NCBI RefSeq assembly: GCF_050920415.1 | Contig: NZ_CP169309.1 | Strand: one strand, 5' to 3' | Length of the DNA: 64,000 nucleotides | Source of the DNA: Escherichia coli | GTDB lineage: Bacteria > Pseudomonadota > Gammaproteobacteria > Enterobacterales > Enterobacteriaceae | Shown: one piece after another, positions 1,961 through 33,253 of the stretch | How the letters are laid out: each line of letters begins with the position of its first letter | Position numbering within the stretch: position 1 is the stretch's first letter | Notes under the pieces: model-generated | Told to the model about the DNA's origin: nothing | Seen by the model: the letters and a program-made list of their open reading frames with translations, nothing else | The model's database searches: none | Position numbers and translations under genes: made by a program

Positions 1961-3604
1961 ATGTTGAAGCGCCTACTAAAAAGACCCTCTTTGAATTTAC
2001 TCGCCTGGCTATTGCTGGCCGCTTTTTATATCGCTATCTGCCTGAATATTGCCTTTTTTAAACAGGTATTGCAGGCGTTGCCGCTGGACTCGCTGCATAA
2101 CGTACTTGTTTTCTTGTCGATGCCGGTCGTCGCTTTCAGCGTGATTAATATTGTCCTGACACTAAGCTCTTTCTTATGGCTTAATCGACCGCTGGCCTGC
2201 CTGTTTATTCTGGTTGGCGCGGCTGCACAATATTTCATAATGACTTACGGCATCGTCATCGACCGCTCGATGATTGCCAATATTATTGATACCACCCCAG
2301 CAGAAAGTTATGCGCTGATGACACCGCAAATGTTATTAACGCTGGGACTCAGCGGCGTACTTGCTGCGCTAATTGCCTGCTGGATTAAAATCAAACCTGC
2401 CACCTCGCATCTGCGCAGTGTTCTTTTCCGTGGTGCCAATATTCTGGTTTCTGTACTGCTGATTTTGCTGGTCGCCGCACTGTTTTATAAAGACTACGCC
2501 TCGTTGTTCCGCAACAACAAAGAGCTGGTGAAGTCCTTAAGCCCCTCTAACAGCATTGTTGCCAGCTGGTCATGGTACTCCCATCAGCGACTAGCAAATC
2601 TGCCACTGGTGCGAATTGGTGAAGACGCGCACCGCAACCCGTTAATGCAGAACGAGAAACGTAAAAATTTGACCATCCTGATTGTCGGCGAAACCTCGCG
2701 GGCGGAGAACTTCTCCCTCAACGGCTACCCGCGTGAAACGAACCCGCGGCTGGCGAAAGATAACGTGGTCTATTTCCCCAATACTGCGTCTTGCGGCACG
2801 GCAACGGCAGTTTCAGTACCGTGCATGTTCTCGGATATGCCGCGTGAGCATTACAAAGAAGAACTGGCACAGCACCAGGAAGGCGTGCTGGATATCATTC
2901 AGCGAGCGGGCATCAACGTGCTGTGGAATGACAACGATGGTGGCTGCAAAGGTGCCTGCGATCGCGTGCCTCACCAGAACGTCACTGCGCTGAACCTGCC
3001 TGGTCAGTGTATCAACGGCGAATGTTATGACGAAGTGCTTTTCCACGGGCTGGAAGAGTACATCACTAACCTGCAAGGTGATGGCGTAATTGTCTTACAC
3101 ACCATCGGCAGTCACGGCCCGACCTATTACAATCGCTATCCGCCACAGTTCAGGAAATTTACCCCTACCTGCGACACCAACGAGATCCAGACCTGTACCC
3201 AAGAGCAACTGGTAAACACTTACGACAATACGCTGGTCTACGTCGACTATATTGTTGATAAAGCAATTAATCTACTGAAAGAACATCAGGATAAATTTAC
3301 CACCAGCCTGGTTTATCTTTCTGACCACGGTGAATCGTTAGGTGAAAATGGCATCTATCTGCACGGTTTGCCTTATGCCATCGCCCCGGATAGCCAAAAA
3401 CAGGTGCCGATGCTGCTGTGGCTGTCTGAGGATTATCAAAAACGGTATCAGGTTGACCAAAGTTGCCTACAGAAACAGGCGCAAACGCAACACTATTCAC
3501 AAGACAATTTATTCTCCACGCTATTGGGATTAACTGGCGTTGAGACGAAGTATTACCAGGCTGCGGATGATATTCTGCAAACTTGCAGGAGAGTGAGTGA
3601 ATGA
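1961..3604 (+). CDS. eptA: Lipid A phosphoethanolamine transferase
   Basis: Track ORF 1916..3604; start placed at the internal ATG giving [14 protein letters not shown] (547 aa), matching EptA/PmrC as recalled; stop overlaps the basR start (ATGA). Confidence 0.88.
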
Positions 3605-11394: not shown

Positions 11395-11838
11395 ATGCCG
11401 TTAAGTCCCTACCTCTCTTTTGCTGGTAACTGTTCCGATGCGATTGCCTATTATCAACGCACGTTGGGCGCGGAACTGCTTTATAAAATCAGCTTCGGCG
11501 AAATGCCGAAATCAGCGCAGGACAGCGCCGAGAACTGCCCTTCCGGTATGCAATTTCCCGATACCGCTATCGCCCATGCTAACGTGCGTATTGCCGGAAG
11601 CGATATCATGATGAGCGATGCCATACCGTCAGGAAAAGCCAGCTACTCCGGTTTTACACTGGTACTCGATTCGCAACAGGTCGAAGAAGGAAAACGCTGG
11701 TTTGATAACCTTGCTGCTAACGGAAAAATCGAAATGGCCTGGCAGGAAACTTTCTGGGCGCATGGCTTCGGCAAAGTCACCGATAAATTTGGCGTGCCGT
11801 GGATGATTAATGTCGTCAAACAACAACCAACGCACTAA
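11395..11838 (+). CDS. yjdN: Glyoxalase/bleomycin-resistance-fold protein YjdN (PhnB)
   Basis: 147 aa; recognised as E. coli YjdN/PhnB. Confidence 0.82.
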   Translation: MPLSPYLSFAGNCSDAIAYYQRTLGAELLYKISFGEMPKSAQDSAENCPSGMQFPDTAIAHANVRIAGSDIMMSDAIPSGKASYSGFTLVLDSQQVEEGKRWFDNLAANGKIEMAWQETFWAHGFGKVTDKFGVPWMINVVKQQPTH

Positions 11839-11893
11839 CCCGCCGGGAGGCCCGCCCTCCCGCACTGTCATCGAATTCCCGTTAACTCTTCAT

Positions 11894-11932
11894 CTGTTAG
11901 TCACTTTTAGTTAACAAAATCGTCACGATAAT
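11894..11932 (+). promoter_or_regulatory. PhoB-dependent phnC promoter (Pho box plus -10)
   Basis: Three phased 11-bp repeats ctgttagtcac / ttttagttaac / aaaatcgtcac followed by gataat, about 40 bp upstream of the phnC ATG; matches Pho-box architecture. Confidence 0.55.
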
Positions 11933-11970
11933 CCGCCACGATGGAGCCACTTTTTTAGGGAGGCTGCATC

Positions 11971-12759
11971 ATGCAAACGATTATCCGTGTCGAGAAGCTC
12001 GCCAAAACCTTCAATCAGCATCAGGCGCTGCATGCGGTTGATCTGAACATTCATCACGGTGAAATGGTGGCTCTGCTTGGGCCGTCCGGTTCCGGCAAAT
12101 CCACCCTTTTACGTCATTTAAGCGGTTTGATTACCGGCGATAAATCTGCCGGTAGCCATATCGAGCTGCTGGGCCGCACAGTCCAACGCGAAGGCCGCCT
12201 GGCCCGCGATATCCGCAAAAGCCGCGCCAACACCGGCTACATCTTCCAACAATTCAACCTGGTGAATCGCCTGAGCGTACTGGAGAACGTGCTGATTGGC
12301 GCGCTCGGCAGCACGCCATTCTGGCGCACCTGTTTTAGCTACTTCACCCGCGAGCAGAAACAGCGCGCGTTACAGGCGCTGACCCGCGTTGGCATGGTGC
12401 ACTTTGCCCATCAGCGCGTTTCCACCCTCTCCGGCGGACAGCAGCAGCGTGTGGCGATTGCCCGTGCGCTGATGCAGCAGGCGAAGGTGATTCTGGCCGA
12501 TGAACCCATCGCCTCGCTGGACCCGGAATCGGCGCGCATCGTGATGGACACCCTGCGCGACATTAACCAGAACGACGGCATTACCGTGGTCGTCACGCTG
12601 CATCAGGTGGATTACGCCCTGCGCTACTGCGAACGCATCGTCGCCCTGCGCCAGGGGCACGTCTTCTACGACGGCAGCAGCCAACAGTTTGATAACGAAC
12701 GTTTTGACCATCTCTACCGCAGCATTAACCGCGTCGAAGAGAACGCGAAAGCTGCCTGA
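11971..12759 (+). CDS. phnC: Phosphonate ABC transporter ATP-binding protein
   Basis: 262 aa; Walker [13 protein letters not shown] signature LSGGQQQR, Walker B ILADEP. Confidence 0.93.
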
Positions 12760-12783
12760 CATCCCCATCATTGAGGAAAACGA

Positions 12784-13800
12784 ATGAACGCTAAGATAAT
12801 TGCCTCGCTGGCCTTCACCAGCATGTTCAGCCTCAGCACCCTGTTCAGCCCGGCGCACGCCGAAGAGCAGGAAAAGGCGCTGAATTTCGGCATTATTTCA
12901 ACGGAATCACAGCAAAACCTGAAACCGCAATGGACGCCTTTCCTGCAAGATATGGAGAAGAAACTGGGCGTAAAGGTCAACGCCTTCTTTGCTCCGGACT
13001 ACGCGGGCATTATCCAGGGGATGCGCTTCAACAAAGTGGATATCGCCTGGTACGGCAACCTGTCGGCGATGGAAGCGGTGGATCGCGCCAACGGTCAGGT
13101 CTTCGCCCAGACGGTCGCGGCGGATGGATCGCCGGGTTACTGGAGCGTGTTGATCGTCAACAAAGATAGCCCGATCAACAACCTGAACGATCTGCTGGCC
13201 AAGCGTAAAGATCTCACCTTCGGCAATGGCGATCCTAACTCCACCTCTGGCTTCCTCGTCCCCGGCTACTACGTCTTCGCCAAAAACAATATCTCCGCCA
13301 GCGACTTCAAGCGCACCGTCAACGCCGGGCATGAAACCAACGCCCTCGCCGTCGCCAACAAGCAGGTGGATGTCGCCACCAACAACACTGAAAACCTCGA
13401 CAAGCTGAAAACCTCCGCGCCGGAGAAGCTGAAAGAACTGAAGGTGATCTGGAAATCGCCGCTGATCCCAGGCGATCCGATCGTCTGGCGCAAAAATCTG
13501 TCCGAAACCACCAAAGACAAGATCTACGACTTCTTTATGAACTACGGCAAAACGCCGGAAGAGAAAGCGGTGCTGGAACGCCTGGGCTGGGCGCCGTTCC
13601 GCGCCTCCAGCGACCTGCAACTGGTGCCAATTCGCCAGCTCGCACTGTTTAAAGAGATGCAAAGCGTGAAGGACAACAAAGGGCTGAACGAACAGGACAA
13701 GCTCGCGAAAACCACCGAGATACAGGCGCAACTGGATGACCTGGATCGCCTGAACAACGCGTTAAGCGCGATGAGTTCGGTGAGTAAAGCGGTGCAGTAA
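12784..13800 (+). CDS. phnD: Phosphonate ABC transporter periplasmic binding protein
   Basis: 338 aa with an N-terminal signal peptide (MNAKIIASLAFTSMFSLSTLFSPAHA). Confidence 0.92.
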   Translation: MNAKIIASLAFTSMFSLSTLFSPAHAEEQEKALNFGIISTESQQNLKPQWTPFLQDMEKKLGVKVNAFFAPDYAGIIQGMRFNKVDIAWYGNLSAMEAVDRANGQVFAQTVAADGSPGYWSVLIVNKDSPINNLNDLLAKRKDLTFGNGDPNSTSGFLVPGYYVFAKNNISASDFKRTVNAGHETNALAVANKQVDVATNNTENLDKLKTSAPEKLKELKVIWKSPLIPGDPIVWRKNLSETTKDKIYDFFMNYGKTPEEKAVLERLGWAPFRASSDLQLVPIRQLALFKEMQSVKDNKGLNEQDKLAKTTEIQAQLDDLDRLNNALSAMSSVSKAVQ

Positions 13801-13809
13801 TGTGCTCGA

Positions 13810-13912
13810 TCGGTCCCCTCTCCCTTGAGGGAGAGGGTTAGGGTGAGGGGGGAAATACGCACGCTGATGCCCTCACCCCGGCCCTCTCCCACAGGGAGAG
13901 GGAGAAAACATT
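13810..13912. repeat. GC-rich composite palindromic repeat (two ~40-bp imperfect palindromes), copy 1
   Basis: ggtcccctctcccttgagggagagggttagggtgagggg ... ccctcaccccggccctctcccacagggagagggagaaaac in the phnD-phnE spacer; closely related copy at 19165..19278. Confidence 0.7.
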
Positions 13913-13926
13913 AAACGGAGCCAAAC

Positions 13927-14706
13927 ATGCAAACCATCACCATCGCCCCACCCAAGCGCAGCTGGTTCTCGCTTCTGAGCTGGGCCATTGTTCTCGCCGT
14001 GCTGGTCGTCTCGTGGCAGGGCGCGGAAATGGCCCCGCTCACGCTGATTAAAGACGGCGGCAACATGGCGACGTTCGCCGCCGACTTCTTCCCGCCCGAT
14101 TTCAGCCAGTGGCAGGATTACCTCACCGAAATGGCCGTCACGCTGCAAATCGCCGTCTGGGGCACTGCGCTGGCAGTCGTTCTCTCCATCCCCTTCGGCC
14201 TGATGAGCGCCGAAAACCTGGTGCCGTGGTGGGTTTACCAGCCCGTTCGCCGCCTGATGGACGCCTGCCGCGCCATTAACGAGATGGTCTTCGCCATGCT
14301 GTTCGTGGTCGCCGTCGGTCTCGGTCCGTTCGCTGGCGTACTGGCGCTGTTTATCCACACCACCGGCGTGCTCTCCAAACTGCTTTCCGAAGCGGTGGAA
14401 GCGATTGAACCCGGCCCGGTGGAAGGCATTCGCGCCACCGGTGCCAATAAGCTCGAAGAGATCCTCTACGGCGTGCTGCCGCAGGTCATGCCGCTACTGA
14501 TTTCCTACTCACTCTATCGTTTCGAATCCAACGTGCGTTCCGCCACCGTTGTTGGCATGGTCGGCGCTGGCGGAATTGGCGTCACGCTGTGGGAAGCGAT
14601 TCGCGGTTTCCAGTTCCAGCAAACCTGCGCCCTGATGGTGCTGATTATCGTCACGGTCAGCCTGCTGGATTTCCTCTCTCAACGGTTGCGTAAGCACTTT
14701 ATCTGA
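13927..14706 (+). CDS. phnE: Phosphonate ABC transporter permease (intact reading frame)
   Basis: 259-aa uninterrupted ORF beginning [28 protein letters not shown] with permease topology; GGAG RBS 8 nt upstream. Confidence 0.88.
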
Positions 14707-22872: not shown

Positions 22873-22906
22873 TGGGTGAGGGGCGATGCCTGCTCTAGAC
22901 TCAACA

Positions 22907-23236
22907 TCACCGCCCATACTCATCTTCCATTCTCCGCTCTTCATCTTCTAGCTGCCGACGCTCCTGATCCAGCTGGCGCTGGCGATCGTCCAGCTGCTTG
23001 CGGCGATCTTCAAACTGGCGGCGGCGATCGTCATATTGTCTGCGCCGATCGTCGTTCACTTCACGCTGCCAGCCGTCGTCGCGCGAATCTTCATAGTCTC
23101 GCCCACGGTCAGGGTTATAAGCATCGTTAATCGCCTGCTGAATATTGCCAATGGTGTCGTCGATAATATCGGCCTGGGCCGGAACGGTGGACAGCGTGAG
23201 CAGGGTGAATAAAATAAATAGCGGAAAACGTTTCAT
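22907..23236 (-). CDS. yjdP: Small secreted protein YjdP with a highly charged D/E/R/Q repeat region
   Basis: 109 aa; signal peptide MKRFPLFILFTLLTLSTVPAQA followed by DDRRRQYDDRRRQFEDRRKQLDDRQRQLDQERRQLEDEERR. Confidence 0.75.
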   Translation of the reverse strand: MKRFPLFILFTLLTLSTVPAQADIIDDTIGNIQQAINDAYNPDRGRDYEDSRDDGWQREVNDDRRRQYDDRRRQFEDRRKQLDDRQRQLDQERRQLEDEERRMEDEYGR

Positions 23237-23304
23237 TAGCCAACCTCAAAAAGAAACTCTATCCACATTAGTCATTACTCATCCATGCAAGTAGTGGATG
23301 AATC

Positions 23305-23622
23305 TCAATTTTTCCGCTGCTCTATTGCCGTAATCGCCTCCACGCGTTGTTGATGACGACCGCCTTCGTACTGCGCGCCCAGCCACGCATCCACAATCAT
23401 TTTTGCCAGTTCGAGGCCAACCACTCGTGAACCAAAAGCCAGTGCAACTTCACTGGCGTAATGCGGATAATCAGTGCGCTCTGACGACCTGGTTTCTTTA
23501 TCAATCCCCTCACTCATTGACTATGAATAAAAGGCTGGCACAGCAACGCAGAATCCTGCGGTGCCAGCGACATGACCGCCCATTGCTCCGGTACGTTTTT
23601 TAATAAGAAACACCGGTTGCAT
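23305..23622 (-). pseudogene. rpiB: Remnant of ribose-5-phosphate isomerase B (internally deleted, 5' region degenerate)
   Basis: 70-aa ORF MSEGIDKETRSSERTDYPHYASEVALAFGSRVVGLELAKMIVDAWLGAQYEGGRHQQRVEAITAIEQRKN matches the RpiB N-proximal segment (WSSERTDYPHYASQVALA) and C-terminus as recalled, but lacks the central part with the catalytic Cys; an in-frame stop lies 2 codons upstream. Confidence 0.55.
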
Positions 23623-23874
23623 TGATTAATTGTGCTCAGTATTTGCCGAAGTACAATATATATAATAAATATATAAAACACCTCATATTATTTACAGAGA
23701 TAATGAATTCGCGTACTTTTCCCTCTTCAGCACAAATGCCTAATAAAATGGCTCGTTCCGCTCACACTTCCACTTATTAAAGTCGCAAATTCCCAATTAT
23801 GATAACGCCAGCTTTAAATGACGTATTTTGCATGGATTACATATTTACGACATAAATGATAAATGGAGATTTAT

Positions 23875-25860
23875 ATGAATAACTCTCGGTTATTCCGTTT
23901 GAGCAGGATTGTTATTGCGTTAACTGCCGCCAGCGGCATGATGGTAAATACCGCTCACGCAACAGATGAAGCGAAAGCCGCGACTCAATATACCCAGCAG
24001 GTTAATCAGCATTACGCAAAATCATTACCGTTTAGCGATCGTCAGGACTTTGACGATGCCCAGCGCGGATTTATCGCCCCGCTGCTGGATGAAGGTATTC
24101 TGCGCGATGCGAATGGCAAAGTTTACTACCGCGCGGATGATTACAAATTTGATATTAATGCCGCTGCGCCGGAAACCGTAAACCCCAGCCTGTGGCGTCA
24201 GTCGCAGATCAACGGCATTTCTGGCCTGTTCAAAGTCACCGATAAAATGTATCAGGTACGCGGCCAGGATATCTCTAACATTACATTCGTTGAGGGCGAG
24301 AAAGGCATTATTGTTATCGACCCACTGGTAACGCCGCCTGCCGCAAAAGCCGCACTTGACCTTTACTTCCAGCATCGTCCGCAAAAACCGATTGTTGCTG
24401 TGATTTACACCCACAGCCACGCCGACCATTATGGCGGTGTGAAAGGCATTATCTCTGAAGCGGATGTTAAATCTGGCAAAGTGCAAGTGATCGCTCCGGC
24501 AGGCTTTATGGACGAAGCCATCAGCGAAAACGTGCTGGCGGGTAACATCATGAGCCGCCGTGCGCTCTACTCTTACGGTCTGTTACTGCCGCATAACGCG
24601 CAAGGCAACGTGGGCAACGGCCTGGGCGTGACGCTGGCAACGGGCGACCCGAGCATTATTGCGCCAACCAAAACGATTGTCAGAACTGGCGAGAAGATGA
24701 TTATCGACGGCCTGGAATTTGACTTCCTGATGACTCCGGGTAGCGAAGCGCCAGCCGAAATGCACTTCTATATTCCGGCCCTGAAAGCCCTGTGTACCGC
24801 CGAAAACGCCACGCATACCCTGCACAACTTCTACACCCTGCGCGGCGCGAAAACCCGCGATACCAGCAAGTGGACAGAGTATCTGAACGAAACGCTGGAT
24901 ATGTGGGGTAACGACGCGGAAGTACTGTTTATGCCACACACCTGGCCGGTCTGGGGCAATAAGCATATCAATGATTATATTGGTAAATATCGCGATACTA
25001 TCAAATACATTCACGACCAGACCCTGCACCTGGCGAACCAGGGTTACACCATGAATGAAATTGGCGACATGATTAAGCTGCCACCTGCGCTTGCCAATAA
25101 CTGGGCCAGCCGCGGCTATTACGGTTCTGTCAGCCACAACGCCCGCGCGGTGTATAACTTCTATCTTGGCTATTACGACGGTAACCCGGCTAACCTGCAT
25201 CCGTATGGTCAGGTGGAGATGGGTAAACGTTACGTGCAAGCTCTGGGCGGTTCTGCCCGCGTTATTAACCTGGCGAAAGAAGCGAACAAGCAAGGTGATT
25301 ATCGCTGGTCGGCAGAACTGCTGAAACAGGTGATTGCCGCCAACCCGGGTGACCAGGTCGCGAAGAATCTGCAAGCGAATAACTTTGAACAGCTGGGCTA
25401 TCAGGCCGAGTCCGCCACCTGGCGCGGTTTCTACCTGACCGGCGCAAAAGAGCTGCGCGAAGGGGTGCATAAGTTCAGCCACGGCACCACCGGTTCTCCG
25501 GACACCATTCGCGGGATGTCGGTCGAAATGCTGTTCGACTTTATGGCCGTTCGCCTCGATAGCGCGAAAGCCGCAGGTAAGAATATCAGCCTGAACTTCA
25601 ATATGAGCAACGGCGATAACCTCAACCTGACGCTGAACGATAGCGTGCTTAACTACCGTAAAACGCTGCAACCTGAAGCCAACGCCTCTTTCTACATCAG
25701 CCGTGAAGATCTTCACGCCGTGCTGACCGGACAAGCCAAAATGGCGGATCTGGTAAAAGCGAAGAAAGCCAAAATTATTGGCAATGGCGCGAAACTGGAA
25801 GAAATTATTGCCTGTCTGGATAATTTCGATTTGTGGGTGAATATCGTAACCCCAAATTAA
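23875..25860 (+). CDS. yjcS: Putative alkyl/aryl sulfatase (metallo-beta-lactamase fold, SdsA1-like)
   Basis: 661 aa from [29 protein letters not shown] (signal peptide); HSHADH motif ([11 protein letters not shown]); RBS-supported second ATG chosen. Confidence 0.88.
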
Positions 25861-25867
25861 TGCCACT

Positions 25868-25905
25868 CACTTTTGGGGGCGCTTAAGCCCCCAAAAGTAT
25901 TTATT
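25868..25905 (+). terminator. Intrinsic terminator after yjcS
   Basis: cttttgggggcgcttaagcccccaaaag hairpin followed by tatttatttt. Confidence 0.65.
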
Positions 25906-26068
25906 TTAAAAATACATACAACCAATTAATACATAAAATATATAAGTTATGAATGCGGTGGCTGAATAAAGCTATTTTTATTCATCGAGAAAATAGCCAT
26001 ACTGACGCCTTCAATGGATATTGATATTCACTACAGATATTGTTCGCAGCAGACAGGATGTATTTAAT

Positions 26069-26344
26069 ATGCCAACAGTTCTCTCTCGCATGGCGATGCA
26101 ACTCAAAAACACAGCCTGGATAATTCCCGTCTCCATGGTTTCGGGATGCTCATTATCTCCGGCAATCCCGGTGATCGGCGCTTATTATCCCAGCTGGTTT
26201 TTCTGCGCCATTGCCAGCCTTATTTTGACGCTCATCACGAGGCGAATTATTCAGCGGGCAAATATCAATCTGGCATTTGTCGGAATTATTTATACCGCCC
26301 TTTTTGCTCTCTACGCCATGCTGTTCTGGCTGGCATTTTTCTAA
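26069..26344 (+). CDS. ytcA: Small lipoprotein/membrane protein YtcA
   Basis: 91 aa from MPTVLSRMAMQLKNTAWIIPVSMVSGCSLSP (lipobox-like SGCS) plus a hydrophobic C-terminal segment; immediately upstream of mdtN. Confidence 0.75.
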   Translation: MPTVLSRMAMQLKNTAWIIPVSMVSGCSLSPAIPVIGAYYPSWFFCAIASLILTLITRRIIQRANINLAFVGIIYTALFALYAMLFWLAFF

Positions 26345-26362
26345 TCTATTTGAGACGCGCTC

Positions 26363-27394
26363 ATGGAAAGTACGCCGAAAAAAGCTCCTCGCAGTAAATT
26401 CCCTGCTCTGTTAGTGGTTGCGTTGGCGCTGGTTGCCCTTGTTTTCGTTATCTGGCGCGTAGACAGTGCGCCATCAACTAATGACGCCTACGCGTCAGCA
26501 GATACCATTGATGTGGTGCCGGAAGTCAGCGGTCGCATTGTAGAACTGGCGGTCACCGACAACCAGGCGGTGAAACAGGGCGATTTGCTGTTCCGCATCG
26601 ACCCGCGCCCGTACGAAGCCAATCTGGCGAAAGCCGAAGCCTCCCTCGCGGCGCTGGATAAGCAAATTATGCTCACCCAGCGTAGCGTTGACGCACAACA
26701 GTTTGGTGCCGACTCGGTTAATGCCACGGTAGAAAAAGCCCGTGCCGCCGCGAAACAGGCCAGTGATACATTACGCCGCACCGAGCCATTACTGAAAGAA
26801 GGTTTCGTCTCAGCGGAAGACGTTGACCGTGCAAGAACGGCGCAGCGCGCCGCAGAAGCCGATCTTAACGCCGTATTGTTGCAGGCGCAGTCAGCCGCCA
26901 GCGCCGTCAGCGGCGTGGATGCGCTGGTGGCGCAACGTGCGGCAGTGGAAGCGGATATTGCGTTGACGAAACTGCATCTGGAAATGGCGACCGTTCGCGC
27001 GCCGTTTGATGGCCGGGTCATTTCCCTCAAAACCTCCGTCGGGCAATTTGCTTCTGCCATGCGCCCTATTTTCACCCTAATCGACACCCGTCACTGGTAC
27101 GTGATCGCCAACTTCCGCGAAACCGATCTGAAAAATATTCGCTCGGGTACACCCGCAACGATTCGCCTGATGAGCGACAGCGGCAAAACCTTCGCAGGTA
27201 AAGTGGATTCGATTGGCTACGGCGTGCTACCGGATGACGGCGGCCTGGTGCTGGGCGGCCTGCCGAAAGTGTCTCGTTCTATTAACTGGGTCCGCGTTGC
27301 CCAGCGTTTTCCGGTCAAAATCATGGTTGAAAAACCTGACCCGGAAATGTTCCGCATCGGCGCTTCGGCAGTCGCTAATCTTGAGCCGCAATAA
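26363..27394 (+). CDS. mdtN: Membrane fusion protein of a putative efflux system (HlyD/EmrA-like)
   Basis: 343 aa; N-terminal TM helix, coiled-coil middle region, beta-barrel C-terminus. Confidence 0.88.
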   Translation: MESTPKKAPRSKFPALLVVALALVALVFVIWRVDSAPSTNDAYASADTIDVVPEVSGRIVELAVTDNQAVKQGDLLFRIDPRPYEANLAKAEASLAALDKQIMLTQRSVDAQQFGADSVNATVEKARAAAKQASDTLRRTEPLLKEGFVSAEDVDRARTAQRAAEADLNAVLLQAQSAASAVSGVDALVAQRAAVEADIALTKLHLEMATVRAPFDGRVISLKTSVGQFASAMRPIFTLIDTRHWYVIANFRETDLKNIRSGTPATIRLMSDSGKTFAGKVDSIGYGVLPDDGGLVLGGLPKVSRSINWVRVAQRFPVKIMVEKPDPEMFRIGASAVANLEPQ

Positions 27395-29445
27395 TGAGCG
27401 CGCTCAACTCCCTGCCATTACCGGTGGTCAGGCTGCTGGCGTTCTTTCATGAAGAGTTAAGCGAGCGGCGACCAGGCCGCGTGCCGCAGACTATGCAACT
27501 CTGGGTAGGCTGCTTGCTGGTGATTCTGATCTCGATGACTTTTGAGATCCCTTTTGTGGCGTTATCACTGGCAGTGCTGTTTTACGGTATTCAGTCGAAC
27601 GCGTTTTACACCAAATTTGTCGCGATCTTGTTTGTGGTCGCCACGATGCTGGAAATCGCCAGCCTGTTTTTGATCTACAAATGGTCATATGGCGAACCGT
27701 TGATCCGATTGATCATTGCCGGACCGATCCTGATGGGCTGTATGTTTTTGATGCGCACCCATCGGTTGGGGCTGGTTTTTTTCGCCGTCGCCATTGTCGC
27801 CATTTACGGGCAAACATTCCCCGCCATGCTCGACTATCCGGAAGTGGTCGTGCGCTTAACGCTGTGGTGTATCGTTGTCGGCCTCTACCCGACGTTATTG
27901 ATGACGTTAATCGGCGTGCTGTGGTTTCCCAGCCGCGCTATCACGCAGATGCATCAGGTGCTTAATGATCGGCTTGATGATGCCATTAGCCACCTGACGG
28001 ACAGCCTCGCACCGCTACCCGAAACGCGGATTGAAAGAGAGGCGCTGGCGCTGCAAAAACTCAATGTCTTTTGCCTCGCGGACGATGCCAACTGGCGAAC
28101 TCAGAGCGCATGGTGGCAAAGCTGCGTGGCAACGGTAACCTACATTTACTCGACGCTGAATCGCTACGATCCCACCTCTTTTGCTGATTCTCAGGCAATT
28201 ATTGAATTTCGGCAAAAATTAGCCTCAGAAATCAACAAACTGCAGCATGCCATTGCCGAAGGTCAGTGCTGGCAAAGCGACTGGCGGATCACTGAAAGTG
28301 AAGCGATGGCGGCACGGGAATGTAACCTGGAGAATATCTGCCAGACATTGTTGCAACTGGGTCAGATGGACCCGAATACACCGCCAACGCCCGCCGCCAA
28401 ACCGCCATCAATGGTCGCCGATGCTTTTACCAATCCAGACTATATGCGCTACGCGGTAAAAACGCTGCTCGCCTGTTTGATCTGTTACACCTTCTACAGC
28501 GGCGTGGACTGGGAAGGCATTCACACCTGTATGCTGACCTGCGTGATCGTCGCTAACCCCAATGTCGGTTCGTCGTACCAGAAGATGGTGTTGCGTTTTG
28601 GCGGGGCTTTTTGCGGCGCAATTCTGGCGCTGTTATTCACGCTACTGGTCATGCCCTGGCTGGACAATATTGTCGAATTGCTATTTGTGCTGGCACCGAT
28701 TTTCCTGTTGGGCGCATGGATTGCCACCAGCTCTGAACGCTCTTCTTATATCGGCACACAGATGGTGGTCACCTTCGCGCTCGCCACGCTCGAAAACGTT
28801 TTTGGCCCGGTGTACGACCTGGTGGAAATTCGCGATCGCGCCCTGGGTATCATCATTGGTACCGTGGTGTCCGCGGTGATTTACACCTTTGTCTGGCCTG
28901 AAAGTGAAGCGCGCACACTGCCGCAAAAACTGGCTGGCGCGCTGGGTATGTTGAGTAAAGTAATGCGGATCCCACGCCAGCAGGAAGTCACGGCTCTGCG
29001 CACTTATCTGCAAATTCGTATAGGTCTGCATGCGGCGTTTAATGCCTGTGAACAGATGTGCCAACGCGTGGCGCTGGAGCGTCAACTGGACAGCGAAGAA
29101 CGCGCTTTACTGATTGAACGTTCGCAAACGGTTATTCGTCAGGGCCGCGATATTCTTCACGCCTGGGATGCAACCTGGAACTCGGCGCAGGCGCTGGATA
29201 ACGCACTACAGCCGGACAGAGCAGGCCTGTTTGCCGACGCACTGGAGAAATACGCCGCCGGCCTGGCAAGCGCACTCAGCCGTTCTCCTCAAATTACACT
29301 TGAAGAGACACCCGCCTCGCAGGCCATCCTGCCGACCTTATTAAAACAGGAGCAATACGTCTGCCAGCTTTTTGCCCGCTTGCCAGACTGGACTGCCCCG
29401 GCATTAACGCCCGCCACGGAACAGGCACAAGGAGCCACGCAATGA
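27394..29445 (+). CDS. mdtO: Inner-membrane efflux component (FUSC/aromatic acid exporter family)
   Basis: 683 aa; multiple TM segments in both halves; start overlaps the mdtN stop by 1 nt. Confidence 0.88.
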   Translation: MSALNSLPLPVVRLLAFFHEELSERRPGRVPQTMQLWVGCLLVILISMTFEIPFVALSLAVLFYGIQSNAFYTKFVAILFVVATMLEIASLFLIYKWSYGEPLIRLIIAGPILMGCMFLMRTHRLGLVFFAVAIVAIYGQTFPAMLDYPEVVVRLTLWCIVVGLYPTLLMTLIGVLWFPSRAITQMHQVLNDRLDDAISHLTDSLAPLPETRIEREALALQKLNVFCLADDANWRTQSAWWQSCVATVTYIYSTLNRYDPTSFADSQAIIEFRQKLASEINKLQHAIAEGQCWQSDWRITESEAMAARECNLENICQTLLQLGQMDPNTPPTPAAKPPSMVADAFTNPDYMRYAVKTLLACLICYTFYSGVDWEGIHTCMLTCVIVANPNVGSSYQKMVLRFGGAFCGAILALLFTLLVMPWLDNIVELLFVLAPIFLLGAWIATSSERSSYIGTQMVVTFALATLENVFGPVYDLVEIRDRALGIIIGTVVSAVIYTFVWPESEARTLPQKLAGALGMLSKVMRIPRQQEVTALRTYLQIRIGLHAAFNACEQMCQRVALERQLDSEERALLIERSQTVIRQGRDILHAWDATWNSAQALDNALQPDRAGLFADALEKYAAGLASALSRSPQITLEETPASQAILPTLLKQEQYVCQLFARLPDWTAPALTPATEQAQGATQ

Positions 29446-30908
29446 TCAATCGTCAACTTTCACGCCTGCTGTTATGCAGCATTCTCGGCAGCACGACGCT
29501 GATTTCGGGCTGTGCCCTGGTACGTAAGGATTCTGCCCCGCATCAACAGCTCAAACCGGAACAAATCAAACTGGCCGATGATTTTCATCTCGCCAGCTCC
29601 GGCTGGCCACAGGCGCAGTGGTGGAAACAACTCAATGATCCGCAGTTGGATGCGCTGATCCAACGGACGCTAAGTGGTTCACATACCCTCGCCGAAGCGA
29701 AACTGCGGGAAGAAAAAGCGCAGTCGCAGGCGGATTTGTTAGATGCCGGTTCACAATTACAGGTGGCAGCGTTAGGGATGCTAAACCGCCAACGTGTCTC
29801 GACGAACGGCTTTTTAAGCCCTTATGCTATGGATGCGCCAGCACTGGGTATGGACGGGCCGTACTATACGGAAGCCACAGTCGGTTTGTTTGCCGGACTG
29901 GATCTTGATTTGTGGGGTGTGCATCGCTCAGCGGTTGCCGCCGCCATTGGCGCGCATAATGCAGCGCTGGCAGAAACCGCAGCAGTAGAGCTATCGCTGA
30001 CCACGGGCGTAGCGCAGCTTTATTACAGTATGCAGGCCAGCTATCAGATGCTCGATCTGTTAGAACAAACACGCGATGTGATTGATTACGCGGTGAAAGC
30101 GCACCAGAGTAAAGTGGCGCACGGTCTGGAAGCGCAAGTGCCTTTCCACGGCGCGCGGGCACAGATTCTGGCGGTCGATAAACAAATTGCTGCCGTTAAA
30201 GGGCAAATCACCGAAACGCGAGAATCTCTGCGTGCATTGATTGGCGCAGGAGCCAGCGATATGCCGGAGATCAAACCGGTGGCATTACCGCAAGTCCAGA
30301 CCGGCATTCCAGCGACACTCTCTTATGAGTTGCTCGCCAGACGCCCGGATCTGCAAGCCATGCGCTGGTATGTTCAGGCGTCATTAGATCAGGTGGATTC
30401 CGCGCGGGCGCTGTTCTATCCGAGCTTTGATATCAAAGCGTTTTTCGGCCTGGATTCTATCCACCTGGATACCTTATTCAAAAAAACCAGTCGCCAGTTC
30501 AACTTTATCCCAGGTCTGAAATTGCCGCTGTTTGACGGTGGACGGTTGAATGCCAATCTCGAAGGCACTCGCGCCGCCAGCAACATGATGATTGAACGTT
30601 ACAACCAGTCAGTGCTAAATGCGGTGCGCGACGTTGCAGTCAACGGCACGCGTCTGCAAACGCTCAACGACGAGCGGGAGATGCAGGCAGAACGCGTAGA
30701 AGCAACGCGCTTCACCCAGCGCGCTGCCGACGCCGCCTACCAACGCGGCTTAACCAGTCGCTTACAGGCCACCGAAGCCCAGTTGCCGGTGCTTGCCGAA
30801 GAGATGTCATTACTGATGCTGGACAGCCGCCGGGTGATCCAAAGCATTCAGTTGATGAAATCGCTGGGTGGCGGGTATCAGGCGGCTCCCGTCGTCGAGA
30901 AAAAATAA
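29442..30908 (+). CDS. mdtP: Outer-membrane efflux lipoprotein (OprM/NodT-like)
   Basis: 488 aa; lipoprotein signal (LISGCAL); overlaps the mdtO stop (ATGA). Confidence 0.88.
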   Translation: MINRQLSRLLLCSILGSTTLISGCALVRKDSAPHQQLKPEQIKLADDFHLASSGWPQAQWWKQLNDPQLDALIQRTLSGSHTLAEAKLREEKAQSQADLLDAGSQLQVAALGMLNRQRVSTNGFLSPYAMDAPALGMDGPYYTEATVGLFAGLDLDLWGVHRSAVAAAIGAHNAALAETAAVELSLTTGVAQLYYSMQASYQMLDLLEQTRDVIDYAVKAHQSKVAHGLEAQVPFHGARAQILAVDKQIAAVKGQITETRESLRALIGAGASDMPEIKPVALPQVQTGIPATLSYELLARRPDLQAMRWYVQASLDQVDSARALFYPSFDIKAFFGLDSIHLDTLFKKTSRQFNFIPGLKLPLFDGGRLNANLEGTRAASNMMIERYNQSVLNAVRDVAVNGTRLQTLNDEREMQAERVEATRFTQRAADAAYQRGLTSRLQATEAQLPVLAEEMSLLMLDSRRVIQSIQLMKSLGGGYQAAPVVEKK

Positions 30909-30919
30909 AATGTCAGCCG

Positions 30920-30975
30920 CGTGATGGCTGTCACGCGGTATTTCGTTTCGTCACGTCAAAACTGACGACAGCCTG
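30920..30975. promoter_or_regulatory. Candidate FhlA upstream activating region for fdhF
   Basis: Cluster of gtcacg / cgtcacgtc / ctgacgac / cgtcag repeats about 100 bp upstream of the sigma54 promoter; placement by analogy with the known fdhF UAS. Confidence 0.4.
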
Positions 30976-31037
30976 TTTTTCGTCAGAGTTTTGAATAAAT
31001 AGTGCCCGTAATATCAGGGAATGCCCCCAAATAAAAT

Positions 31038-31054
31038 GTGGCATAAAAGATGCA
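31038..31054 (+). promoter_or_regulatory. Sigma54 (-24/-12) promoter of fdhF
   Basis: tGGcataaaagatGCa: GG and GC spaced exactly as in the TGGCAC-N5-TTGCA consensus, about 50 bp upstream of the fdhF ATG. Confidence 0.65.
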
Positions 31055-31105
31055 TACTGTAGTCGAGAGCGCGTATGCGTGATTTGATTAACTGGAGCGA
31101 GACCG

Positions 31106-33253
31106 ATGAAAAAAGTCGTCACGGTTTGCCCCTATTGCGCATCAGGTTGCAAAATCAACCTGGTCGTCGATAACGGCAAAATCGTCCGGGCGGAGGCAGC
31201 GCAGGGGAAAACCAACCAGGGTACCCTGTGTCTGAAGGGTTATTATGGCTGGGACTTCATTAACGATACCCAGATCCTGACCCCGCGCCTGAAAACCCCC
31301 ATGATCCGTCGCCAGCGTGGCGGCAAACTCGAACCTGTTTCCTGGGATGAGGCACTGAATTACGTTGCCGAGCGCCTGAGCGCCATCAAAGAGAAGTACG
31401 GTCCGGATGCCATCCAGACGACCGGCTCCTCGCGTGGTACGGGTAACGAAACCAACTATGTAATGCAAAAATTTGCGCGCGCCGTTATTGGTACCAATAA
31501 CGTTGACTGCTGCGCTCGTGTCTGACACGGCCCATCGGTTGCAGGTCTGCACCAATCGGTCGGTAATGGCGCAATGAGCAATGCTATTAACGAAATTGAT
31601 AATACCGATTTAGTGTTCGTTTTCGGGTACAACCCGGCGGATTCCCACCCTATCGTGGCGAATCACGTAATTAACGCTAAACGTAACGGGGCGAAAATTA
31701 TCGTCTGCGATCCGCGCAAAATTGAAACCGCGCGCATTGCTGACATGCACATTGCACTGAAAAACGGCTCGAATATCGCGCTGTTGAATGCGATGGGCCA
31801 TGTCATTATTGAAGAAAATCTGTACGACAAAGCGTTCGTCGCTTCCCGTACAGAAGGCTTTGAAGAGTATCGTAAAATCGTTGAAGGCTACACGCCGGAG
31901 TCGGTTGAAGATATCACCGGCGTTAGCGCCAGTGAGATTCGTCAGGCAGCGCGGATGTATGCCCAGGCGGAAAGCGCAGCCATTCTGTGGGGCATGGGTG
32001 TTACCCAGTTCTATCAGGGCGTGGAAACCGTACGTTCTCTGACCAGCCTCGCGATGCTGACCGGTAACCTCGGTAAGCCGCATGCGGGGGTAAACCCAGT
32101 TCGTGGTCAAAACAACGTGCAGGGGGCCTGCGATATGGGCGCGCTGCCAGATACTTACCCTGGCTACCAGTACGTGAAAGATCCGGCTAACCGCGAGAAA
32201 TTCGCCAAAGCCTGGGGCGTAGAGAGCCTGCCTGCACATACCGGTTATCGCATCAGCGAGCTACCGCATCGCGCAGCGCATGGCGAAGTGCGCGCCGCGT
32301 ACATTATGGGCGAGGATCCGCTGCAAACGGATGCGGAACTGTCGGCAGTACGTAAAGCTTTTGAAGATCTGGAACTGGTCATCGTTCAGGACATCTTTAT
32401 GACCAAAACCGCGTCGGCGGCGGATGTCATTTTACCGTCAACGTCGTGGGGCGAGCATGAAGGCGTGTTTACTGCGGCTGACCGTGGCTTCCAGCGTTTC
32501 TTCAAAGCAGTTGAACCGAAATGGGATCTGAAAACGGACTGGCAGATTATCAGTGAAATCGCCACCCGTATGGGTTATCCGATGCACTACAACAACACCC
32601 AGGAGATCTGGGATGAGTTGCGTCATCTGTGCCCGGATTTCTACGGTGCGACTTACGAGAAAATGGGCGAACTGGGCTTCATTCAGTGGCCTTGCCGCGA
32701 TACTTCAGATGCCGATCAGGGGACTTCTTATCTGTTTAAAGAGAAGTTTGATACTCCGAACGGTCTGGCGCAGTTCTTCACCTGCGACTGGGTAGCGCCA
32801 ATCGACAAACTCACCGACGAGTATCCGATGGTACTGTCAACGGTGCGTGAAGTCGGTCACTACTCTTGCCGTTCGATGACCGGTAACTGTGCGGCACTGG
32901 CGGCGCTGGCTGATGAACCAGGCTACGCACAAATCAATACCGAAGACGCCAAACGTCTGGGTATTGAAGATGAGGCATTGGTTTGGGTGCACTCGCGTAA
33001 AGGCAAAATTATCACCCGTGCGCAGGTCAGCGATCGTCCGAACAAAGGGGCGATTTACATGACCTACCAGTGGTGGATTGGTGCCTGTAACGAGCTGGTT
33101 ACCGAAAACTTAAGCCCGATTACGAAAACGCCGGAATACAAATACTGCGCCGTGCGCGTCGAGCCGATCGCCGATCAGCGCGCCGCCGAGCAGTACGTGA
33201 TTGACGAGTACAACAAGTTGAAAACTCGCCTGCGCGAAGCGGCACTGGCGTAA
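31106..33253 (+). CDS. fdhF: Formate dehydrogenase H (selenocysteine-containing molybdoenzyme); in-frame TGA at 31523..31525 decoded as Sec
   Basis: Track ORFs 31106..31525 and 31574..33253 are in the same frame, separated only by one TGA (codon 140); N-terminal Cys cluster CPYCASGCKINLVV; 715 aa total. Confidence 0.93.
31523..31570 (+). other. SECIS stem-loop directing Sec insertion at the fdhF UGA
   Basis: tgacacggcccatcggttgcaggtctgcaccaatcggtcggtaatggc immediately 3' of the UGA, matching the fdhF SECIS as recalled. Confidence 0.85.

Follow-up and report, generated by a model that had tools for sequence, protein, structure and literature searches.

An alkyl sulfatase beside a proposed four-component, ALMT-like exporter at the yjcS-ytcA-mdtNOP locus of Escherichia coli: a candidate functional link

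We propose that the yjcS-ytcA-mdtNOP locus of Escherichia coli consists of two adjacent transcription units, one for an alkyl sulfatase and the other for a four-component, ALMT-like exporter, which would handle the same chemistry; we give this proposal even chances. Unrelated periplasmic sulfatases recur beside the pump, so that cooperation between enzyme and exporter has now become testable.

The 64,000-nucleotide stretch of DNA that was analysed (the window) is E. coli chromosome: in genome comparison, its segment 23500-31200 matches E. coli NZ_CP169399.1 with 100% identity, and 5419 of the 5426 complete genomes of the species contain this locus. The genes yjcS, ytcA, mdtN, mdtO and mdtP are already named and make up a known E. 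coli locus, with identical genes, order and annotation in E. coli K-12 (yjcS, b4083; ytcA, b4622; mdtNOP, b4082-b4080, formerly yjcRQP/sdsRQP). In K-12, the D-allose (als) operon lies upstream of yjcS; it is missing from the present strain, in which only an rpiB remnant remains. RefSeq annotation in window coordinates places all five genes on the + strand with exactly the limits given in a preliminary description of this DNA, and the gene identities proposed there are borne out, RefSeq annotation and Pfam agreeing for every family.

RefSeq annotation, Pfam and PDB matches identify the product of yjcS (23875..25860, + strand) as a type III (metallo-beta-lactamase fold) alkyl sulfatase, predicted to be periplasmic, with a signal peptide of ~30 residues. 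YjcS contains all three domains of this class (Lactamase_B, Alkyl_sulf_dimr and Alkyl_sulf_C; E 1e-56), matches the PDB entries 4PDX ('YjcS', E=0) and 2CFU (SdsA1, E 1e-183), and carries at residue 180 the Zn motif HSHADH, which fits the HxHxDH of type III alkyl sulfatases. The signal peptide predicted at the N-terminus closes with AHA, and residue 31 is the first of the crystallised construct (4PDX), so that the earlier designation as a secreted SdsA1-like alkyl sulfatase stands, with export to the periplasm predicted from sequence. YjcS is reportedly active on SDS, and related alkyl sulfatases also occur without a pump, e.g., Yersinia ruckeri yraS.

Between yjcS and ytcA lies the intrinsic terminator that had been described there (25869..25908, + strand; 12-bp stem, 6-nt loop and T-rich tail), which ranked first in a terminator scan and can be read directly in the sequence as a strong hairpin (25869-25898, 7 G-C pairs) with ATTTATTTTA after it. 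The AT-rich segment beyond it (25909..26068, + strand) is presumed to be the regulatory region of the ytcA-mdtNOP operon, given its base composition and the LeuO/H-NS control described in the literature; the entire yjcS-ytcA spacer measures 208 nt and has a G+C content of 0.337, against 0.528 for the window. The strong terminator and the AT-rich 208-nt spacer therefore argue for two separate units, and yjcS and ytcA-mdtNOP look separately transcribed in E. coli. A sigma-70 consensus scan returned 6 matches against 7.5 expected, none of them inside the spacer; the region upstream of yjcS, read by eye, contains no convincing sigma-54 site, and Rfam at a permissive threshold detected no RNA element in the locus except the fdhF SECIS. 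With respect to regulators, RpoN and NtrC bind the yjcS promoter region in vitro, and mdtNOP is reported to be activated by LeuO and silenced by H-NS, as relayed by a paper that cites Shimada 2009. A 2025 review of TolC describes the mdtNOP promoters as unconfirmed and the function of MdtP as not elucidated.

The four genes of the presumed operon follow in close succession on the + strand. The first, ytcA (26069..26344), encodes a 91-aa lipoprotein with two transmembrane helices, which Pfam and hhalign point to as an AaeX-like fourth pump subunit. After a gap of 18 nt comes mdtN (26363..27394), for a membrane-anchored periplasmic adaptor of the HlyD/EmrA/AaeA type (Pfam HlyD_3, HlyD_D23 and Biotin_lipoyl_2), then mdtO (27394..29445), for the inner-membrane component, and mdtP (29442..30908), for an outer-membrane factor lipoprotein of the TolC/OprM family (Pfam OEP; lipobox). 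The tight overlap noted earlier for the last three genes amounts to one base between mdtN and mdtO (TAATG) and four bases between mdtO and mdtP (ATGA). A terminator-like hairpin after mdtP (30916..30949, + strand; 10-bp stem with 6 G-C pairs), second-ranked in the terminator scan, would mark the end of the operon.

YtcA matches the Pfam family Ytca (PF17090; 57 bits, E 2e-15) and, weakly, DUF1656, and the lipobox VSGC is present, in agreement with the small lipoprotein previously assigned to this gene. Among 20 diverse YtcA proteins, 12 have DUF1656 matches in Pfam; in an alignment from 20 lineages the G-C lipobox is invariant and the motifs G..FP.W.FC and W...F are seen, and hhalign matches YtcA with AaeX at E 1.3e-4. 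YtcA is a lipoprotein-anchored relative of AaeX (DUF1656), and its gene lies upstream of the adaptor gene in every locus for which upstream DNA is available. MdtN belongs to the HlyD family by Pfam, has the N-terminal transmembrane segment FPALLVVALALVALVFVIW and is encoded by the most conserved gene of the module, with identities of 61-75% across nearly all lineages compared and 51% in one. In MdtP, the Pfam domain OEP (PF02321) matches two stretches, and an N-terminal lipobox, LISGC, is present as in the OprM branch.

The ytcA-mdtN-mdtO-mdtP module is complete at every related locus with enough upstream DNA (24 MdtO groups, down to ~30% identity), and the four genes stay grouped, their stop and start codons overlapping, in lineages as far apart as Enterobacteriaceae and Verrucomicrobia. 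Retention of the whole set, along with the high identity of MdtN, indicates strong selection on the complete machine and not on MdtP alone; the unit of function is four genes, the overlooked lipoprotein YtcA included.

MdtO belongs to the FUSC / aromatic acid exporter family (Pfam PF04632; TC 2.A.85), with matches to FUSC (61.6 bits; cut-off 30.9), FUSC_2 (PF13515, 32.2 bits; cut-off 25.6) and the NCBIfam MdtO equivalog (1358 bits; cut-off 821), and the Pfam search returned no MFS (MFS_1), RND or ABC match. The fold search agrees, so that the claim of an inner-membrane component that is FUSC-type and not RND, MFS or ABC holds. In the literature, MdtO has been labelled MFS in two reviews and RND in the armeniaspirol paper. 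The MFS assignment was rejected here: MFS_1 is absent, and MFS structures, including EmrB of EmrAB-TolC, appear as noise (Foldseek probability 0.05, E about 1). The AlphaFold model (pLDDT 92.7, pTM 0.90) is all-helical and falls into two halves, in each of which a cytosolic helical domain comes after a transmembrane bundle. Against the PDB, Foldseek ranks 1-9 are all plant ALMT structures (AtALMT1, GmALMT12 and AtALMT9), at probability 0.99-1.00 over alignments of 360-396 columns with sequence identity of 13-17%, and the alignments pair each MdtO half with one ALMT protomer. Only the fold search gave relatives: when the PDB was searched with a profile of MdtO orthologues, nothing came up even at E=1. 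The two halves are also related to each other, as residues 1-335 and 336-683 align by hhalign with a probability of 91.9% (E 7e-7, 258 columns). Three arginines of MdtO, R105, R401 and R482, are invariant. On this modelling, MdtO is a fused pseudo-dimer of two diverged ALMT-like repeats, and such a fold points to organic-anion conduction rather than classical antiport.

Sulfatases of a second class adjoin the module in other lineages. In Burkholderia and Paraburkholderia (L016, L018, L067), an anaerobic sulfatase maturase and a type I sulfatase are encoded directly upstream of ytcA; in Citrobacter (L010) and at the second Pluralibacter copy (L053, to which L007 is identical), genes for a type I sulfatase and a maturase directly adjoin the module, and a metagenomic lineage (L030-L032), with an MdtO identity of 35%, has both at the opposite end of the operon, just downstream of the outer-membrane gene. 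One Pluralibacter genome bin contains two pump paralogues, each adjoining a different sulfatase class. All type I sulfatases next to the module possess signal peptides and are predicted to be periplasmic; their active-site motifs are of the Ser-type (Burkholderia, Citrobacter and Pluralibacter) or the Cys-type, and the accompanying radical-SAM maturases exceed the TIGR03942 cut-off in NCBIfam. Gene order and orientation vary among these cases, and the sulfatases are only 31% identical, against 74-84% identity of the adaptors to that of E. coli. At the Burkholderia junction between sulfatase and pump, a same-strand gap of 118 nt contains two hairpins and no canonical terminator; a single six-gene operon of sulfatase, maturase and pump genes was considered for this group.

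Sulfatase genes are rare, four being known in E. coli K-12. The four contexts found in all, namely type III YjcS and three type I/maturase arrangements, lie within three ORFs of the module: sulfatase or maturase genes account for 6 of the 119 nearest-three flank ORFs and for 0 of 154 farther ones, and ~300 kb of representative flanks contained no sulfatase gene elsewhere. Sulfatases are missing from at least 13 other lineages or contexts with at least 3 kb of flank. Because the local HMM for type I sulfatases drew on three sequences, and because the ORF picker once chose an antisense ORF over the L030 sulfatase, the proteins nearest the module were also searched with Pfam as a second check on these absences.

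These distributions bear on the shared role of sulfatase and pump that the preliminary description had put forward as a hypothesis, and they support it in part. The recurrence of type I sulfatases beside the module speaks for it, and the E. coli terminator, the differing reported regulators, the patchy distribution and the alkyl sulfatases that occur without a pump speak against it. Given that unrelated sulfatases adjoin the module in separate lineages, the link is plausible and recurrent, and it is not universal, the association failing to extend across the pump subfamily (at least 13 contexts, plus four Enterobacteriaceae, lack it). We place a functional link between sulfatase and pump a little short of an even chance.

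The principal competing account denies any functional link: yjcS and the pump would be neighbours by virtue of an inherited phn-yjcS-mdtNOP-fdhF block, the sulfatase contexts elsewhere would be coincidence or one ancestral accident, and the pump would be a cryptic exporter, silenced by H-NS, for xenobiotics or metabolites in general, acting as AaeAB does as a 'metabolic relief valve'. Within Enterobacteriaceae, the adjacency of yjcS and pump is inherited synteny (phnP-yjcS-ytcA-mdtNOP-fdhF), and 4 of 17 informative genomes (L008, L013, L022 and L023) keep the pump and are missing yjcS, both of which this account would expect, as it would the terminator and separate reported regulators in E. 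coli. Moreover, most distant lineages have other neighbours, including LysR, TetR, MarR or two-component regulators and, in six soil groups with no sulfatase, a PoxB-like TPP enzyme upstream of the module. A reading of that enzyme as sulfoacetaldehyde acetyltransferase (Xsc), and with it a sulfur theme in the soil lineages, was rejected because its closest NCBIfam match is PoxB-type pyruvate dehydrogenase. Furthermore, a rough tree makes the sulfatase-bearing Enterobacteriaceae and Burkholderia pump clades sisters, so that some sulfatase contexts may share one origin. Coincidence or a single accident, however, sits poorly with two unrelated sulfatase folds beside the pump, with the variation of the type I cases in order, orientation and active-site residue and their low sulfatase identity relative to that of the adaptors, and with the sulfatase on the opposite operon side in the lineage at 35% MdtO identity; sulfatases are rare, yet all of those in the ~300 kb of flanks are close to the module. 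On balance we hold the account without a link to be doubtful, if a serious contender.

Under the proposal of two units with a common chemistry, YjcS would be exported by Sec and would act in the periplasm as a Zn-dependent hydrolase of sulfate esters, e.g., SDS. The ytcA-mdtN-mdtO-mdtP genes would be coupled in translation within one operon, normally silent under H-NS and switched on by LeuO, and would specify a four-component exporter across the cell envelope. In this machine, MdtO would be the inner-membrane conduit, each repeat contributing six transmembrane helices and a cytosolic helical bundle like an ALMT protomer; YtcA would be its small, lipid-anchored two-helix membrane partner, MdtN the adaptor and MdtP the outer-membrane lipoprotein channel. 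The inside-negative membrane potential or the proton-motive force might drive lipophilic organic anions or weak acids through the pore of MdtO, from which they would leave the cell via the MdtN/MdtP duct. The periplasmic sulfatase would strip sulfate from amphipathic sulfate esters, and the pump would expel the phenol or alcohol left over as a membrane-active aglycone, which is the version we prefer, or else sulfate-ester anions that had entered the cell. The analysis itself shows the gene identities, the anatomy of the operon, the MdtO fold, the kinship of YtcA with AaeX and the recurrence of sulfatases as neighbours; the energy coupling, the substrates and the functional link are what we infer in this scheme. 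The recurrence of sulfatases of unrelated fold beside the pump nominates sulfate esters and their aglycones, which are commercially available, as candidate substrates and inducers. More tentatively, YtcA-MdtNOP-type pumps and periplasmic sulfatases may constitute a recurrent two-part system for using or surviving sulfated amphiphiles, such as detergents and the phenol, steroid and alkyl sulfates of hosts or plants. If true, the 'orphan' MdtNOP/MdtP of E. coli would gain its first physiological role, and a FUSC-type pump would be seen to follow a new logic; if the link holds, sulfatase activity in gut and soil would be tied to efflux, which would explain the silence of the operon on laboratory media.

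Resistance-gene catalogues class MdtNOP as a multidrug pump. According to the armeniaspirol paper, resistance to pyrrolomycin and armeniaspirol requires mdtOP: a tolC mutant deleted from alsR through mdtN, with neither ytcA nor mdtN and expressing mdtOP, is fully resistant to both, and further removal of mdtO and mdtP restores sensitivity. The 2025 TolC review adds that mdtP null mutants are reportedly more susceptible to puromycin, acriflavine and tetraphenylarsonium; a literature search under the old names sdsRQP/yjcRQP returned unrelated matches only. The substrates so reported are weak acids or phenolics, which would fit organic-anion export. MdtP may simply replace TolC in that tolC mutant, so that the resistance of this strain is no demonstration of transport by MdtO. 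That MdtP alone matters, as a spare outer-membrane channel for other pumps (e.g., AcrAB) without TolC, with MdtO, MdtN and YtcA adding little to the known drug phenotypes, would accommodate both the tolC strain and the mdtP null mutants but is improbable in view of the four overlapping genes kept together as far as Verrucomicrobia and of the conservation of MdtN.

Among known systems, the proposed pairing of sulfatase and exporter has partial counterparts on both sides. YjcS has the three-domain architecture and Zn motif in common with SdsA1, the type III alkyl sulfatase of Pseudomonas aeruginosa; we know of no FUSC pump adjacent to sdsA1. The type I pairs of Burkholderia, Citrobacter and Pluralibacter resemble AtsA/AtsB of Klebsiella and AslA/AslB of E. 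coli in combining a periplasmic Ser-type sulfatase with a maturase; they are distant from AtsA and AslA, NCBIfam arylsulfatase scores lying far below the cut-off, and to our knowledge neither AtsAB nor AslAB has been described next to an efflux operon.

On the side of the pump, the p-hydroxybenzoate efflux system AaeXAB of E. coli combines, in the same gene order as the module, the two-helix DUF1656 protein AaeX, an HlyD-type adaptor and a FUSC permease, and Pfam labels MdtN-type adaptors 'Beta-barrel_AAEA'. AaeXAB is not known to have an outer-membrane gene of its own, and no sulfatase neighbour of aaeXAB is known to us; unlike AaeX, YtcA is equipped with the signal peptide of a lipoprotein and with a lipobox. 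An outer-membrane factor, a FUSC-family permease, an adaptor and a small protein of the DUF1656 family also come together in the fusaric-acid pumps FuaABC (Stenotrophomonas) and Bucl8-FusCDE (Burkholderia), a make-up described as that of a four-part pump and, for Bucl8-FusCDE, proposed to be 'tetrapartite'. These pumps differ from the present one in that their permeases are of another FUSC subfamily, their small protein is of another family and has no lipobox, their substrate is fusaric acid and no sulfatase association has been reported for them. Finally, the fold of MdtO is common to the plant ALMTs (AtALMT1, GmALMT12/QUAC1 and AtALMT9) and to mycobacterial Rv2571c, a single-repeat FUSC protein that a preprint models as an ALMT-like homodimer and describes as an exporter of alpha-ketoglutarate. 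The ALMTs and Rv2571c are one-repeat homodimers and channels that work alone, whereas MdtO carries two diverged repeats in a single chain and would work with an adaptor and an outer-membrane duct.

The window corresponds to the E. coli chromosome; strain MFDS1022581 is 100% identical over 23500-31200, a stretch found in 5419 of 5426 complete E. coli genomes. Gene coordinates, transposed to window positions from the RefSeq annotation of the MFDS1022581 record, place yjcS (23875-25860), ytcA (26069-26344), mdtN (26363-27394), mdtO (27394-29445) and mdtP (29442-30908) on the plus strand, with phnP and yjdP upstream and fdhF downstream, and RefSeq and Pfam bear out in every detail the gene content and limits (23875-30908) of the preliminary description. 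YjcS, for which a crystal structure is available (4PDX) and SDS is a reported substrate, matches all three SdsA1-type alkyl sulfatase domains in Pfam (SdsA1 match, E = 1e-183), starts with a Sec-type signal peptide and contains the Zn motif HSHADH. The terminator described 3′ of yjcS is present as a 12-bp G+C-rich hairpin followed by a T tract (25869-25898), and YtcA (PF17090) possesses the lipobox expected of a small lipoprotein, as does MdtP, an OEP protein; MdtN is an HlyD-type adaptor with an N-terminal membrane anchor. The pump genes are indeed tightly packed, with an 18-nt ytcA-mdtN gap and overlaps of 1 base (mdtN/mdtO) and 4 bases (mdtO/mdtP).

Several features of this region are peripheral to the pump. 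The alsRBACEK D-allose operon, located between rpiB and yjcS in K-12, is missing here (22873-23874, including 23305-23622 on the minus strand), and all that is left is an rpiB fragment with an internal stop. An uninterrupted als-less junction of this kind is present in 1567 of the 5426 complete genomes; in most others it is split. Downstream, an in-frame UGA selenocysteine codon divides fdhF (31106-33253) into the ORFs 31106-31525 and 31574-33253, and the SECIS element at 31518-31572 (87 bits, Rfam) is known biology. Protein searches reveal YjcS variants of 86-88% identity in many E. coli genomes, beside the common 96-99% class, and the locus is matched at only 90-95% DNA identity in 177 E. 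coli genomes; these variants could represent a divergent allele or a phylogroup lineage of the locus.

Genomes scanned with an MdtO alignment, one for each species, yielded 23 related loci (denoted here by L numbers), a metagenome scan contributed 80 more and neighborhood look-ups added others; all were subjected to ORF calling and HMM/phmmer labelling, and their MdtO proteins form 24 groups at 60% identity. In every locus with sufficient upstream DNA, a YtcA homologue is encoded directly 5′ of the adaptor gene; the FUSC gene comes next, and an outer-membrane-factor gene completes the module in all but L088, L110/L111 and L120. This order spans Enterobacteriaceae, Burkholderia and one Puniceicoccales (Verrucomicrobia) genome, and the pump is thus a four-gene unit. 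By far the best-conserved gene of the module across L016-L111 is mdtN: its product keeps 61-75% identity with E. coli MdtN in nearly all lineages, Verrucomicrobia included (51% in L111), compared to 30-45% for MdtO, 41-64% for MdtP and 27-45% for YtcA. The bias is visible even at short range (E. coli versus E. whittamii: 98% identity for MdtN, 88% for MdtO), and MdtO divergence is concentrated in its two cytosolic helical domains. RND and MFS pumps usually show their lowest conservation in the adaptor.

The preliminary description envisaged a shared role of sulfatase and pump in handling amphipathic sulfate esters or aromatic acids. Within E. coli, the terminator, the 208-nt AT-rich yjcS-ytcA spacer (34% G+C), and the reported RpoN/NtrC binding upstream of yjcS as against LeuO/H-NS control of mdtNOP point to separate units. 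The phnP-yjcS-ytcA-mdtNOP-fdhF order kept within Enterobacteriaceae is inherited synteny. Upstream of ytcA, yjcS is present in 12 of 17 genome loci with informative sequence; four (L008, L013, L022 and L023) lack it, with phnP only 0.7-1 kb away, and one (L010) has a different sulfatase plus a maturase. Two tandem yjcS genes precede ytcA in Superficieibacter electus (L019, 4266-6263 and 6369-8357), and a metagenome contig likewise carries a tandem pair (L052, 79-2064 and 2037-4130).

Comparison across lineages lends partial support to the shared role through recurrent sulfatase adjacency. Unexpectedly, the module of L010 (Citrobacter sp. wls619) occupies a different locus, where the genes before it encode a sulfatase of type I (formylglycine) and an anaerobic sulfatase maturase of the radical-SAM type. 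Contig L053 shares this arrangement and matches, at 100% identity, copy two (L007) of the pump in a Pluralibacter genome bin; copy one (L005) in that bin adjoins yjcS. Provided that the bin is sound, a single organism carries a pair of pump paralogues, and each has a sulfatase of a different fold next to it. In Burkholderia/Paraburkholderia (L016, L018 and L067; MdtO 44-45% identical), maturase and type I sulfatase genes lie directly 5′ of ytcA on the same strand, and in a metagenomic lineage (L030-L032; MdtO 35%) they lie 3′ of the outer-membrane gene. All these maturases score above the TIGR03942 equivalog cut-off and a signal peptide is present in every one of the type I sulfatases, whose active-site motifs vary (Ser-type SSPTR and STAGR, Cys-type CSPSR), and the Citrobacter and Burkholderia enzymes are only 31% identical. 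Two strong hairpins (GAGAAGCACG...CGTGCTTCTC and GCCCGGAT...ATCCGGGC) lie in the 118-nt gap between the sulfatase gene and ytcA in the Burkholderia locus L016 (8530-8647). A clear T tract is absent, and the hairpins could be an attenuator or operator.

In a census of about 300 kb of flanking sequence from 26 representative contexts, sulfatase or maturase genes account for 6/119 of the nearest-three ORFs versus 0/154 of those farther away. Sulfatase genes are rare (four are known in E. coli K-12), so coincidental adjacency in four contexts is unlikely. A serious rival, to which we assign a substantial minority probability, is inherited synteny devoid of functional linkage. Several observations count against the link: a rough neighbor-joining tree pairs the Enterobacteriaceae clade with that of Burkholderia as its sister, so the independent adjacency events number between two and four; no sulfatase is present in at least 13 further contexts whose flanks were long enough to judge; and alkyl sulfatases are also known alone, as in Yersinia ruckeri. 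A functional sulfatase-pump link is the reading that we tentatively favor, at slightly under an even chance. Under this model, the sulfatase would strip sulfate from amphipathic esters, and the pump would expel the aglycone, whether phenol or alcohol, or else ester anions that had got inside.

Other neighbors occur as well. In six soil-metagenome MdtO groups (L071, L080, L096, L097 [group 20], L098 and L107), a TPP enzyme (~590 aa) nearest to ubiquinone-dependent pyruvate dehydrogenase (PoxB) is encoded directly 5′ of ytcA instead, often with a LysR regulator nearby; it is a second recurrent neighbor, unrelated to sulfatases. L029 (the P0223 locus), a distant module (MdtO 33%), has HGSNAT-like and NAGLU-like flanking genes (1996-3243 and 11650-14136), whose human counterparts function in heparan sulfate degradation, and no sulfatase within 8 kb. 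The pump subfamily seems to be positioned beside enzymes releasing membrane-active small molecules, the enzyme being a periplasmic sulfatase in the Enterobacteriaceae/Burkholderia branch and one other lineage.

With yjcS, ytcA and mdtNOP all named before, the locus is already known; the present analysis adds the comparative support for the sulfatase-pump hypothesis, corrects the fold assignment of MdtO, relates YtcA to AaeX and exposes an unexplained rate pattern, with MdtN conserved far above MdtO. The literature openly concedes that what MdtNOP/MdtP does is not known, and our results point to concrete compounds as test substances.

MdtO has been presented as an RND-system component homologous to AcrB in the armeniaspirol paper and filed as MFS by two reviews, and one paper writes "MdtNOP-TolC" despite the operon's own outer-membrane factor. 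We reject the RND and MFS assignments: FUSC and FUSC_2 are the sole Pfam matches and the fold is ALMT-like, in agreement with the FUSC-type component described at the outset. A profile search of PDB sequences with MdtO gave no match. The AlphaFold model is confident (pLDDT 92.7, pTM 0.90; 71-sequence alignment), and plant ALMT anion channels fill the first nine places among its PDB matches (probability 0.99-1.00), each spanning about half of MdtO, with MFS structures, EmrB included, at noise level only. The two halves are homologous to one another (hhalign probability 92%, E = 7e-7), so that MdtO is a single-chain pseudo-dimer of the ALMT pore-forming unit. MdtO would then export organic anions by conduction, from the cytoplasm or the inner leaflet, driven by membrane potential or proton-motive force. 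Such conduction fits the known FUSC family substrates, p-hydroxybenzoate and fusaric acid, as well as two phenolic weak acids, pyrrolomycin and armeniaspirol, resistance to which in a tolC mutant requires mdtOP. Because ytcA and mdtN are missing from the resistant strain, MdtP may be no more than a stand-in for TolC there, and transport by MdtO itself is putative.

In an alignment of 20 diverse YtcA proteins, the lipobox G-C is invariant, and the motifs G-x-x-F-P-x-W-x-F-C (helix 1) and W-x-x-x-F (C-terminus) are apparent. Twelve of the 20 also match DUF1656, the AaeX family (best E = 1.5e-6), and AaeX (sequence confirmed by Pfam as DUF1656 at 72 bits) aligns with the YtcA profile over 53 columns (E = 1.3e-4, probability 54%). 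YtcA is therefore a lipid-anchored counterpart of the small subunit known from aaeXAB and, in Burkholderia, from the "tetrapartite" FusCDE pump. The unit repeated in MdtO forms homodimeric anion pores in plant ALMTs, and it recurs in Rv2571c, a mycobacterial FUSC protein connected with alpha-ketoglutarate export by a 2026 preprint.
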